Source: an uncultured Planctomycetia bacterium (GTDB lineage: Bacteria; Omnitrophota; Gorgyraeia; 2-02-FULL-51-18). From it: a DNA stretch of 64,000 nt. Both the position numbers and the translations under genes were made by a program. Below the pieces are notes generated by a model. The model made no database searches and was not told where the DNA came from. It saw only the letters and a list, made by a program, of their open reading frames with translations. The stretch is taken from positions 75,964-139,963 of the forward strand of contig CAZXLF010000007.1 of assembly GCA_964642015.1 (NCBI GenBank). The letters are read 5' to 3'. Shown one piece after another: positions 43,170 to 44,062 of this stretch (the first letter of the stretch is position 1; each line of letters begins with the position of its first letter).

Positions 43170-43305
43170 GTCTTAGGGAGTCGAACAAGAGCGACGCGCT
43201 GCCAGTGGCAGAAAAGCCGACTCTTCGGCGTCAGCGTCGCGAATGCCCGACCCGGAGCTGAGACCTTTAGATCTCGGCGAAGGGCGGTCGACTCCTCGCC
43301 CAGGA
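43170..43305 (+). ncRNA. Unclassified structured RNA element, copy 1 (paralogue of 43950..44062)
   Basis: Shares CTGCCAGTGGCAGAAAAGC, GTCAG, CCGACCCG and a CCTTTAGA loop with copy 2, with compensatory stem changes. Ends about 13 nt before the downstream ORF. Confidence 0.6.
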
Positions 43306-43317
43306 TTTAGGAATTTT

Positions 43318-43698
43318 ATGTTTAAAAATATAGCGAATTTTTCATATCGCAGAAACGGCAAAGAAGCGTTTGGTTTCTATTTAGCGTATCTTTTTTTTAC
43401 TATGTTATTGGGAGGTTTAGCAGGAGGAATTTACGAAATAATCCATAGGAGTTCAATTCGGAGTTTAAATTTTAAAGAAGGTTTCGTAGAAGGATTTAAA
43501 GCAGGTATACCGATTGGGCATTTAGCATCAGTTTTATTTCTTATTGTTTTATCTATCATAATCTTAAAGCAGAAGCGTTTATTAAGACATTACGGTTTTT
43601 TGGTTTTGGCAATAGGCTCTGGAATAGCAACAATTTTAATAGGTTCTATTGTTGGTTTGATTCCTCTCGCTTTTTTGACAACGCGGGAAAACAAATAG
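43318..43698 (+). CDS. Small (126-aa) 3-4-TM membrane protein of unknown function
   Basis: ATG 43318 with AGGA 7 nt upstream; hydrophobic helices. The track's longer start 43243 would overlap the RNA element. Confidence 0.5.
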   Translation: MFKNIANFSYRRNGKEAFGFYLAYLFFTMLLGGLAGGIYEIIHRSSIRSLNFKEGFVEGFKAGIPIGHLASVLFLIVLSIIILKQKRLLRHYGFLVLAIGSGIATILIGSIVGLIPLAFLTTRENK

Positions 43699-43837
43699 GG
43701 CAATCATCTTCCCCTCGGTGTAAAAGTGGGGAGGATTTGTCCGCGCGAAAAGATGCGCGGCGAACAGTTGCCGCTAGATTGAAAAATTGGCGGCTGCCTT
43801 CGCTAATTGCGGGGTGCAGGTTCAAAAAATAGTTTTA

Positions 43838-43914
43838 GGGCAATTAGCTCAGTTGGTTAGAGCGTTTCCTTGACATGGAAAAGGTCACAGGTTCGAGTCC
43901 TGTATTGCCCACCA
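43838..43914 (+). tRNA. tRNA-Val (GAC), CCA encoded
   Basis: GGGCAAT acceptor, anticodon stem TTTCC/GGAAA with loop TTGACAT, T-arm ACAGG-TTCGAGT-CCTGT, ATTGCCC-A-CCA. Confidence 0.85.
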
Positions 43915-43949
43915 TATATTGTTCTTTTTTAAACACGAGTGAATAGGCA

Positions 43950-44062
43950 ATACGGGACTCGAGGGAGCGCGCCGCTGCCAGTGGCAGAAAAGCGAATTCT
44001 TTCGCGTCAGGCGCGCGAGTGGCCGACCCGTAGCGGTGGACCTTTAGATTCGCCGCGCCCAT
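43950..44062 (+). ncRNA. Unclassified structured RNA element, copy 2
   Basis: See copy 1. Lies between tRNA-Val and the TIR gene. Confidence 0.6.

Follow-up and report, generated by a model that had tools for sequence, protein, structure and literature searches.

Two structured repeats, here termed units c1 (43166-43304) and c2 (43946-44062), lie on the plus strand of a 64-kb stretch of chromosome from a member of the phylum Candidatus Omnitrophota (the window), each directly downstream of a tRNA gene. Comparison with related units on other contigs reveals that they are inserted at the T-loop of tRNA genes together with a replacement tRNA end, that their 5' arm tracks the local tRNA genome by genome, and that their fold is under selection. 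We regard it as an evenly poised proposition that c1 and c2 represent a family of gene-less insertion elements of 150-190 nt within a clade of this phylum, in which a folded strand would be joined to its target by a trans-encoded enzyme.

Insertion at the T-loop of tRNA genes

The initial annotation, made from the sequence alone, described two paralogous RNA elements at these places, each between a tRNA and an open reading frame (ORF). Both copies were recovered there on the plus strand with their shared exact blocks, c1 between tRNA-Leu and an ORF starting at 43318, and c2 between tRNA-Val and an ORF starting at 44085. The 19-mer CTGCCAGTGGCAGAAAAGC occurs exactly twice in the 64 kb, still twice when three mismatches are allowed, against a chance expectation of 0.02, and a register-true 70-nt repeat (D1; 43189-43258 and 43965-44034) is 80% identical between the copies. 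An identical 20-mer common to both includes the loop of hairpin P2a, which differs in other genomes; to judge from these sequences, the identical hairpin points to exchange or spread within one genome.

The source clade was recognized through relatives of the window's ThrS, which at 62-84% identity bear Omnitrophica names. Among GTDB species genomes ThrS identity reaches at most 55% and no unit occurs at those thrS loci, which were therefore used as negative controls. An exact pattern (CAGTGGCAGAAAAGC..CCGACCCG) had no match among 185,579 species genomes, a result explained by variation in the P2a loop. Three patterns searched on viral contigs returned chance matches within coding sequence and nothing else, and blastn against phages and plasmids returned nothing relevant. 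A pattern scan of metagenomes gave 12 loci with one true homologue, L091 from Hainich groundwater, a tandem array of at least 2.5 units (partial unit u0, then u1 and u2) with a period of ~160 nt. A two-frame query against cluster representatives found P0001, the peptide of a spurious ORF, which led to unit e1 on L097; a protein search with P0001 returned itself and nothing more. The initial annotation had proposed a search with a covariance model; one built from five units (model R1) found nothing further in the window or in 80 diverse thrS loci, and detected four more units in the syntenic coaB-tRNA(Cys, Leu, Val)-thrS loci of relatives. These are f1 (L107, directly 3' of tRNA-Leu, 106 bits), the divergent g1 (L103/L104, 3' of tRNA-Val, 51 bits), and h1 and h2 (L109, 3' of tRNA-Leu and tRNA-Val, 40 and 22 bits). 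The known set comprises ~10 units on 6 contigs.

No known family accounts for the units, as had been surmised from the sequence. Rfam 15, whose scope takes in riboswitches, ribozymes, transfer-messenger RNA (tmRNA), RNase P, signal recognition particle RNA, 6S RNA, Y RNA/YrlA, HEARO, IS605-orfB and attC-like motifs, gave no match for c1 or c2 at the gathering score or at E<=10, and none for the units in L091, L097, L104, L107 and L109. ARAGORN and RF00005 found no tRNA or tmRNA in the units, the genuine flanking tRNAs being the only detections, and literature searches turned up no description of such an element.

The borders of the units lie within tRNA sequence. The last part of c1 repeats the tRNA-Leu 3' end in direct orientation (CTCCTCGCCCAGG, 13/13, at a spacing of 156 and preceded by TCGACTCC; repeat D5), and corresponding direct repeats bound f1 (18/18), h1 (27/27) and h2 (18/18). 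In these four units and in a fragment in L104 the repeat starts in the T-loop at C56, and it extends for 13-27 nt, reaching the end of the tRNA or a few bases past it; given this variable length, a block of identity carried by the element is a better fit than a fixed staggered cut. The tRNAs that bear units are left intact (60-75 bits). Empty sites are present in L101 and L105, where tRNA-Leu and tRNA-Val stand 8-25 nt apart with no unit between them, and the sequence 3' of the downstream repeat of c1 (GGATTTAGGAATTTTA) resembles the native Leu-Val spacer at the L101 empty site (GGATTTGAGAAAGTTTTA). Several marks of a tRNA-integrating element are found here: a flanking direct repeat that starts in the T-loop, an intact tRNA and an empty orthologous site.

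The window and its relatives carry the units in different states: full in L107 and L109, decayed in c2, L104 and L105, and as an array in L091. L105 retains a 5' remnant only (CAATAGAGGACTCGAAGTGAGCCGCCG), with a 16-nt exact complement of that genome's own tRNA-Val. Unit c2 lacks the 3' strand of helix P3 and the 3' repeat (a 17-column gap against c1) and is therefore 3'-truncated, ending near 44062; the 3' end expected of a Val-type unit is present in L104 and L109, the L104 fragment (..CCGCCGC GAAGGGCGG CGAGTCCTAT) being the part missing from c2. Sequences that are bounded by tRNA repeats and are absent, truncated or arrayed across relatives show the behaviour of an insertion element, although the units may also act as a transcript.

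The 5' arm tracks the local tRNA, genome by genome. The initial annotation did not mention that the two strands of P1 repeat the 3' end of the neighbouring tRNA, one inverted and the other direct. In c1, 43175-43186 is an inverted copy of tRNA-Leu 43126-43137 (12/12 exact, 37 nt apart; repeat I5), and in c2, 43946-43962 is complementary to tRNA-Val 43893-43909 at 16 of 17 positions (36 nt apart; repeat I2), the exception being a G-U pair if the strand is RNA. As a control, inverted copies of the 3' 24 nt of 120 tRNAs in 1.63 Mb of fetched loci were sought up to 100 nt downstream; the longest exact copy was 4-6 nt for 100 of the 120, and 8-16 nt where a unit or remnant was present. The c1 arm forms a duplex of -33.6 kcal/mol with its own tRNA-Leu, and Val-type arms pair best with the tRNA-Val of their own genome (-33.5 kcal/mol in the window, -45.9 in L109 and -34.8 in L105), compared with -15 to -22 kcal/mol with Leu tRNAs (-16 to -18 for the c2 arm); for Leu-type arms the preference is reversed. 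T-stem and acceptor bases vary among the three tRNA-Val genes (TGTATTGCC, TGTCATACC, TCTATTGCC), and the arms vary at the corresponding positions. Complementarity covers tRNA positions about 54-76, and in h2, where the helix reaches ~23-24 bp, it extends through the encoded CCA. Unit e1 carries a tRNA-Glu-like end (AATCCCGTTGGGGTCGCA) with a matching arm.

Two types of tRNA-Leu(UAA) occupy one locus in close relatives (window 43064-43146, L101:9675-9759, L104:1137-1221 and L105:9714-9798 were compared), with acceptor strands GGGCGAG/CTCGCCC or GCCGGGG/CCCCGGC and T-arms that differ too. Units at this locus match the first type, whereas the end of the L091 units resembles the clade's second, and replacement of the 3' end by the element might contribute to turnover between the types.

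A covarying three-way junction

The fold common to the units consists of P1, in which the 5' arm pairs with the tRNA-end copy; P2, a 7-bp stem that encloses hairpins P2a and P2b in most units and one long hairpin in h1 and h2; and P3, in which CCG(A)CCC pairs with GGGCGG and closes hairpin P4. With RNA and with DNA parameters alike, the minimum free energy (MFE) fold of c1 is this three-way junction (P1/P2/P3-P4; z = -3.1 and -3.4), and h2, taken in the element register, has the same MFE fold (z = -12). The three helices listed in the initial annotation are all present in both window copies, with double-sided substitutions between them; a fourth helix, P3 (CCGACCC/GGGCGG), and the closing helix P1 are additional to that list. 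Compensatory changes affect four local helices.

The fold is under selection, as its compensatory changes exceed shuffled and slid controls and are accompanied by an asymmetry of wobble pairs between the strands. Over five units, 97.1% of cells are paired and 14 of 30 pairs have changed on both sides, a level matched by 0 of 500 shuffles, with slid controls at 25-48%. Ten model-aligned rows, nine full units and the partial u0, give 94.5% paired cells and double-sided change in 18 of the 30 pairs, again matched by 0 of 500 shuffles; across the two alignments slid controls lie at 25-51%. The ten-row alignment, having been fitted to the model, leans towards structure. Covariation holds as homologues from four other contigs are added. 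P3 itself covaries, from CCC/GGG to CCT/AGG (u0, u1 and g1) and CTTTT/AAAAG (h2). Wobbles of the G-T/T-G kind number 7 against 2 of the A-C/C-A kind, favouring the plus strand as the folded strand. RNAalifold preferred, on the first alignment, an alternative pairing between the 5' arm and CCGACCC, which is possible but has no double-sided change behind it. Of the initial interpretation, the structured element with real compensatory changes is borne out, with the plus strand as the folded one; the interpretation of its position as a leader arrangement is not.

Conservation is strongest in the arm plus J12 (TCGAAG-N-GAGC), in the junction block with P3 (GAGTG-S-CCGAC, part of the junction plus CCGACCC) and in GGAGGGCG-S, and a T-run with a TTGAMA / GYGAAT spacer similar to that of c1 can be read in every unit. 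The P4 loop CCTTTAGA is kept in c1, c2, u0-u2, e1 and g1, is interrupted in f1, and has given way to other hairpins in h1 and h2, while the P2b loop YTCT is kept only in the c/u/e/g type.

Several other uses of the sequence were considered and rejected. Open frames cross the repeats, but the encoded peptides differ wherever stems covary, contrary to a coding role. P4 as the anticodon arm of a suppressor tRNA, and the minus strand as an insert-bearing tRNA, both fail for want of a tRNA detectable by ARAGORN or Rfam, and the wobbles favour the plus strand. A terminator or attenuator of the tRNA would carry its T-run 3' of the hairpin, and here it lies in the loop of the tRNA-arm hairpin. On the minus strand, hairpin P2b runs into TTTTC, which complements the GAAAA junction, and the site has a terminator-like score in both copies (43216-43235 and 43992-44005); this is probably incidental.

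The window copies and their surroundings

Table 1. Features at and around units c1 and c2, in window positions
Feature	Position	Strand	Basis or remark
tRNA-Leu(UAA)	43064..43146	+	ARAGORN and Rfam; directly upstream of c1
tRNA-Leu 3' part from T-loop (TCGACTCCCTCCTCGCCCAGG)	about 43128-43148	+	upstream repeat copy; pairs with c1 5' arm (repeats I5, D5)
c1 spacer: T-run plus TTGAAAATAG	43149..43165	+	read from sequences
c1 5' arm (P1 5' strand), CTGGG-TCTTA-GGGAGTCGAAC	43166..43186	+	reverse complement of tRNA-Leu 3' end, with internal loop
c1 P2 domain: stem 43191-43197 / 43234-43240; P2a 43199-43211 and P2b 43216-43229 inside	43191..43240	+	MFE folds, pair counts
c1 junction GAATGC plus CCGACCC (P3 5' strand, 43247-43253)	43241..43253	+	invariant columns
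c1 P4 hairpin, 8-nt loop CCTTTAGA	43257..43278	+	fold, pair counts
c1 P3 3' strand GGGCGG (43282-43287) and direct copy of tRNA-Leu 3' end (43288-43304)	43282..43304	+	
126-aa ORF	43318..43698	+	no Pfam or PADLOC family
tRNA-Val(GAC)	43838..43914	+	ARAGORN, Rfam; directly upstream of c2
tRNA-Val 3' part TCGAGTCCTGTATTGCC	43893-43909	+	pairs with c2 5' arm (repeat I2)
c2 5' arm GGCAATACGGGACTCGA	43946..43962	+	complements tRNA-Val 3' end
c2 core: P2 43967-43973 / 44010-44016; P2a 43975-43987; P2b 43992-44005; junction plus CCGACCC 44017-44029; P4 44033-44056	43967..44056	+	
TIR-domain ORF, ThsB-like accessory gene	44085..44750	+	Pfam TIR_2, 5e-15; thrS directly next

The terminal copy in c1 (TCGACTCC-TCGCCCAGG) is direct and slightly degenerate; it serves as the 3' strand of P1 and is read as the displaced original tRNA end. 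The 126-aa ORF that follows has a sequence that reads like a membrane protein. As it lies outside the repeat-bounded unit it is treated as a separate accessory gene, and its Shine-Dalgarno sequence is outside P1. The ORF that follows c2 also has weak PADLOC matches to ThsB and TIR-TM.

Genes downstream of the units are unrelated to one another, comprising the 126-aa ORF, the TIR protein, a PsbP-like protein, an 85-89-aa antitoxin-like ORF followed by PemK, and a 522-aa protein; all lie outside the repeat-bounded units, and in L109 no gene follows h1 or h2. A tRNA or thrS is also among the features downstream of units. No single gene family or pathway consistently associated with the units was found among the downstream genes examined. 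The coaB-thrS interval is a hot spot for accessory genes in every relative, and we infer that the neighbouring ORFs arrived there separately. Defence and toxin genes gather just upstream of thrS, represented by the TIR_2/ThsB-like ORF in the window and by a small ORF followed by a PemK toxin gene at L104:1780-2363 and L102:860-1434. The origin-proximal coaB-tRNA-thrS interval is in this way marked as a hot spot of insertion where such genes accumulate.

This part of the window is core chromosome near the origin, with dnaA, dnaN, gyrBA, yidC, mnmG, parAB, ndk, yicC, coaC, coaB and pheT; gmk, thrS, infC, rpmI, rplT and pheS were named via precomputed annotations of L001 and the syntenic loci. 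The position of dnaA (31915-33300, minus strand) and a cumulative GC-skew minimum at ~33 kb place the replication origin inside the window, and to the right of this minimum the plus strand is the lagging-strand template. A 6S RNA lies at 51927-52113 (Rfam, 49.8 bits), with a syntenic 6S at L109:17819-18017.

No gene or ORF is present inside the units. Recombinase, reverse transcriptase (RT) and transposase domains were not matched in the roughly 56 window ORFs scanned, and among the genes called in the fetched loci none bears a precomputed Pfam label for an RT, a TnpB-like protein or a recombinase, the DEDD type included. No DEDD recombinase or TnpB/IscB adjoins any unit, no Rfam omega or bridge scaffold was matched, and no RAYT or TnpA(Y1) was seen in the 64-kb window or, in relatives, over as much as 10 kb to either side of thrS. 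The units are read as non-autonomous. As to an expression platform of the riboswitch kind, the alternative pairing of the 5' arm with CCGACCC exists, and no plus-strand terminator was found at the units. Because ORFs abut the units, some read-through transcription is likely.

The same hot spot contains a second small element family, a ~90-aa GIY-YIG ORF between hairpin repeats of the TCCGCC..GGCGGA type, situated in tRNA-Val (L099:8490-8870, L108:9400-9830, L107:9600-9720 and window:43696-43835) and leaving duplicated or split pieces of that gene (GGGCAATT..). L107 has a pseudo-tRNA-Val with an interruption in the anticodon loop; the window place holds a gene-less remnant with a duplicated tRNA-Val start (repeat D6); and a hairpin of the same type is inserted in the P4 loop of f1 (L107:8896-8927). 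Directly 3' of tRNA-Val in L101:9862-9990 and L104:1398-1500 is a long, GC-rich conserved hairpin (TTTCGCAGRACTTACG..CGTAAGTYC..CGCGAAA) with a second hairpin, which has no Rfam match and is absent from the window. L109:9160-9290 carries an insert between tRNA-Cys and tRNA-Leu that resembles a miniature inverted-repeat transposable element (MITE), with terminal inverted repeats of ~17-19 nt (GATTTTGATTTAAACGA / TCGTTTAAATCAAAATC). At L062:10520-10645, in an unrelated gammaproteobacterial metagenome-assembled genome, a tRNA-Pro has 3' of it first an exact 11-nt inverted copy and then a direct repeat (CCTCTCGCCCCGACCAA) of its own 3' end, ~95 nt in all. This is the layout of the units with no sequence similarity to their core, so the layout may be more general.

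Competing explanations and known systems

On the insertion-element explanation, which gives the simplest account, the element lies in the 3' portion of a tRNA gene, is bordered on the left by T55|C56 in the T-loop, and brings a replacement tRNA 3' end from C56 onwards; as it carries its own copy of this end, the tRNA stays intact. A T-rich spacer, the tRNA-complementary arm, the variable P2 domain, the conserved GAGTG-S-CCGACCC, the variable P4 hairpin and GGGCGG come next, followed by the displaced original tRNA 3' end as the direct repeat. On the plus strand the arm pairs with the tRNA-end copy (P1, a local hairpin in the element register) and CCGACCC with GGGCGG (P3). Two complementary segments thereby grip the continuous sequence ...GGGCGG|CGACTCC..., and P2 branches off directly across from the point of insertion. 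The folded single strand, which could be lagging-strand template DNA or a transcript, would in this way rebuild a duplex copy of the target tRNA site, and a recombinase or transposase encoded elsewhere may cut and join at the junction, by analogy with attC, the attP hairpin of CTX phage and REPIN/RAYT. If this is correct, the units would be among the smallest integrative elements described, at ~150 nt, and would repair the essential tRNA gene that they enter. Their arm would be rewritten for each tRNA (Leu, Val, Glu) and each genome variant, making the target readable from a base-paired arm. The logic would be that of bridge RNAs, group II introns and folded attC/CTX sites in a simpler and new format, from a poorly studied phylum.

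Several considerations weigh against this explanation. No mobilizing enzyme was found in the window ORFs or among the labelled genes of the fetched loci; a circle of ~156 nt is hard to form as double-stranded DNA, and we know of no vehicle for one. A simple folded att site has no need of the YTCT loop of P2b, the CCTTTAGA loop of P4 or a branched P2, and these conserved loops with the branched P2 look more like an RNA with partners. The units are probably in transcribed DNA and, standing 3' of tRNAs and abutting ORFs with no room for a separate promoter, they could plausibly have an RNA role. The ten-row alignment (A4) is model-fitted, and a set of ~10 units on 6 contigs implies few independent evolutionary events. 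For the rewriting of an arm to suit a new tRNA we can offer guesses, such as a template switch between inverted repeats close to one another or a fresh copy made with every insertion. The orthologous c1, f1 and h1 may go back a long way by vertical descent, a history equally suited to a host-beneficial RNA.

Such an RNA, a host small RNA (sRNA) or 5' leader in the 3' external spacer or trailer co-transcribed with the tRNA and freed by tRNA processing, is an unlikely explanation, though one that deserves serious attention. It might act as an sRNA, a sponge, a 5' stabilizer of mRNA or, by way of its anti-tRNA arm, a control on the maturation of tRNA; the repeats would be by-products of its origin from tRNA duplication. 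It would account for strong covariation with G-U pairs on the tRNA-sense strand, for the conserved loop and junction sequences, for a GC content of 0.60-0.71 in a region of about 0.38-0.46, for units placed directly after tRNAs and abutting the ribosome-binding sites of ORFs, and for the L091 array upstream of a gene. It accords poorly with downstream genes that are unrelated, or absent for h1 and h2, and with a patchy distribution in close relatives, where truncations (c2, L105), fragments (L104) and a hairpin within the f1 P4 loop are tolerated; these, with the bounding repeats and the array, leave the cis-regulatory leader of the initial annotation weak. The P4 loop and P2 interior are not kept in h1 and h2, the tRNAs have T-runs 3' of them, and a sigma-70-like promoter was not detected adjacent to the units. 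Furthermore, when tRNA-Val and c2 are folded as one RNA, an 18-bp P1 is predicted to replace the T and acceptor arms of the tRNA. If the units are instead insertion elements, covarying structured intergenic repeats beside tRNAs need not be regulatory RNAs.

The complementarity of the arm to tRNA positions ~54-76, with CCA in h2, and its change with the tRNA could also indicate an RNA-templated or RNA-guided element, in which the arm serves as a guide or as a primer-binding site. Reverse transcription would be primed by the 3' end of the tRNA or by nicked DNA of its gene; alternatively, the arm and CCGACCC would form a bridge-like splint that brings target and element end together for a trans-acting enzyme or, at the extreme, the junction would be a self-cleaving or ligating ribozyme. 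The insertion point exactly at the three-way junction, between two pairing segments, and the conserved junction nucleotides suit this idea. The scanned window ORFs and fetched-locus labels hold no RT, DEDD recombinase or TnpB-like protein, however, there is no match to a known ribozyme or omega/bridge RNA family, and the variable 13-27 nt repeats are better explained by an element-borne identity block than by a staggered cut, so that we hold it decidedly doubtful. A particular form, which we advance only tentatively as an improbable one, has the arm and CCGACCC as a two-part guide or splint, set apart by the P2 scaffold, that aligns the element end with tRNA position 56 for joining by a trans enzyme or junction ribozyme; it would describe a minimal gene-less, programmable, tRNA-targeting mobile RNA/DNA, retargeted by a change of arm. 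It is very unlikely that the units are scars of larger tRNA-integrated islands, attL and attR arms left after internal deletion with an incidental fold. Tyrosine-integrase islands are classically marked by direct repeats of a tRNA 3' end with their start in the T-loop, and the locus is an accessory-gene hot spot, but the same ~110 nt core recurs at Leu, Val and Glu-type ends across genomes with double-sided compensation at 14-18 pairs, the arm changes with the tRNA, whole units form a tandem array, and independent deletions would not leave identical ends each time. Degenerate tRNA pseudogenes or functionless local tandem duplications, suggested by a 3' part like a T-arm plus acceptor 3' strand and by the CTTTAGA of the P4 loop, like an anticodon loop, are hardly credible: neither ARAGORN nor the Rfam tRNA model recognizes the units, their 5' two-thirds is unrelated to tRNA, and stems kept through compensatory change contradict the idea.

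Several known systems share features with the units. REPINs with their RAYT (IS200-like HUH) enzymes and the IS200/IS605-derived PATEs are likewise gene-less, non-autonomous and ~100-200 nt long, and consist of single-strand hairpins under compensatory change that can cluster. They are moved in trans and favour the lagging-strand template. REPINs, however, are simple hairpins of two inverted repetitive extragenic palindromic (REP) sequences, with no tRNA targeting, replacement gene end or target-matched arm. Integron attC sites and the attP(+) of CTX phage also keep structure over sequence, rebuild a duplex site with bulges from inverted arms, have a variable and sometimes branched central part, occur in arrays, and leave both arms in the chromosome after integration. 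Unlike attC, the units lack RYYYAAC (R'') and GTTRRRY (R'), their tRNA-derived arms GGGAGTCGAAC / TCGACTCC being off consensus when read by eye, and the whole element is ~156 nt with no cassette ORF between repeats; no IntI was found, and the units target a tRNA T-loop, not attI or dif.

Islands and phages that use tyrosine integrases at the T-loop sublocation of tRNAs, and the integrase-less cis-mobilizable elements (CIMEs), share with the units a direct repeat of the tRNA 3' end from the T-loop, a functional 3' end supplied by the element and tandem accretion at one tRNA; the ssrA islands of Dehalococcoides are reportedly a comparable case. The units are 100-1000 times smaller, have no integrase inside or adjoining them among the ORFs scanned, and possess a covarying branched fold together with an inverted att copy that changes with the tRNA. 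In IS110/IS1111 bridge (seek) RNAs and in group II introns, with their exon- and intron-binding sites (EBS-IBS), a segment of the element again complements the flanking target, so that the choice of target is encoded in a base-pairing arm, and the total length is similar at ~150-180 nt. There is no adjacent DEDD recombinase or intron-encoded protein here and no Rfam match, and the two pairing segments of the units address the same target positions on opposite strands, whereas those of bridge RNAs address adjacent halves.

The primer-binding site of retroviruses and long terminal repeat (LTR) retrotransposons is similarly an ~18-24 nt complement of a specific tRNA 3' end that varies with the tRNA, but the units reside inside the gene of that same tRNA, with no LTRs or RT. 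The 3'ETS-leuZ RNA, like the units, is a functional-RNA candidate in a tRNA transcript trailer; it is short, not bounded by repeats, not complementary to its tRNA, and neither patchy nor arrayed. MITEs of the DDE type have terminal inverted repeats at their very ends and a short target duplication of fixed length, unlike the variable 13-27 nt repeats of the units, whose inverted arm is internal to the upstream repeat and not terminal. Non-autonomous hairpin elements, folded att sites and tRNA-integrating islands are therefore the closest known kinds, and what appears new is the combination: a gene-less element of ~150 nt that joins T-loop insertion and tRNA-end repair with a target-matched arm and a covarying three-way junction.

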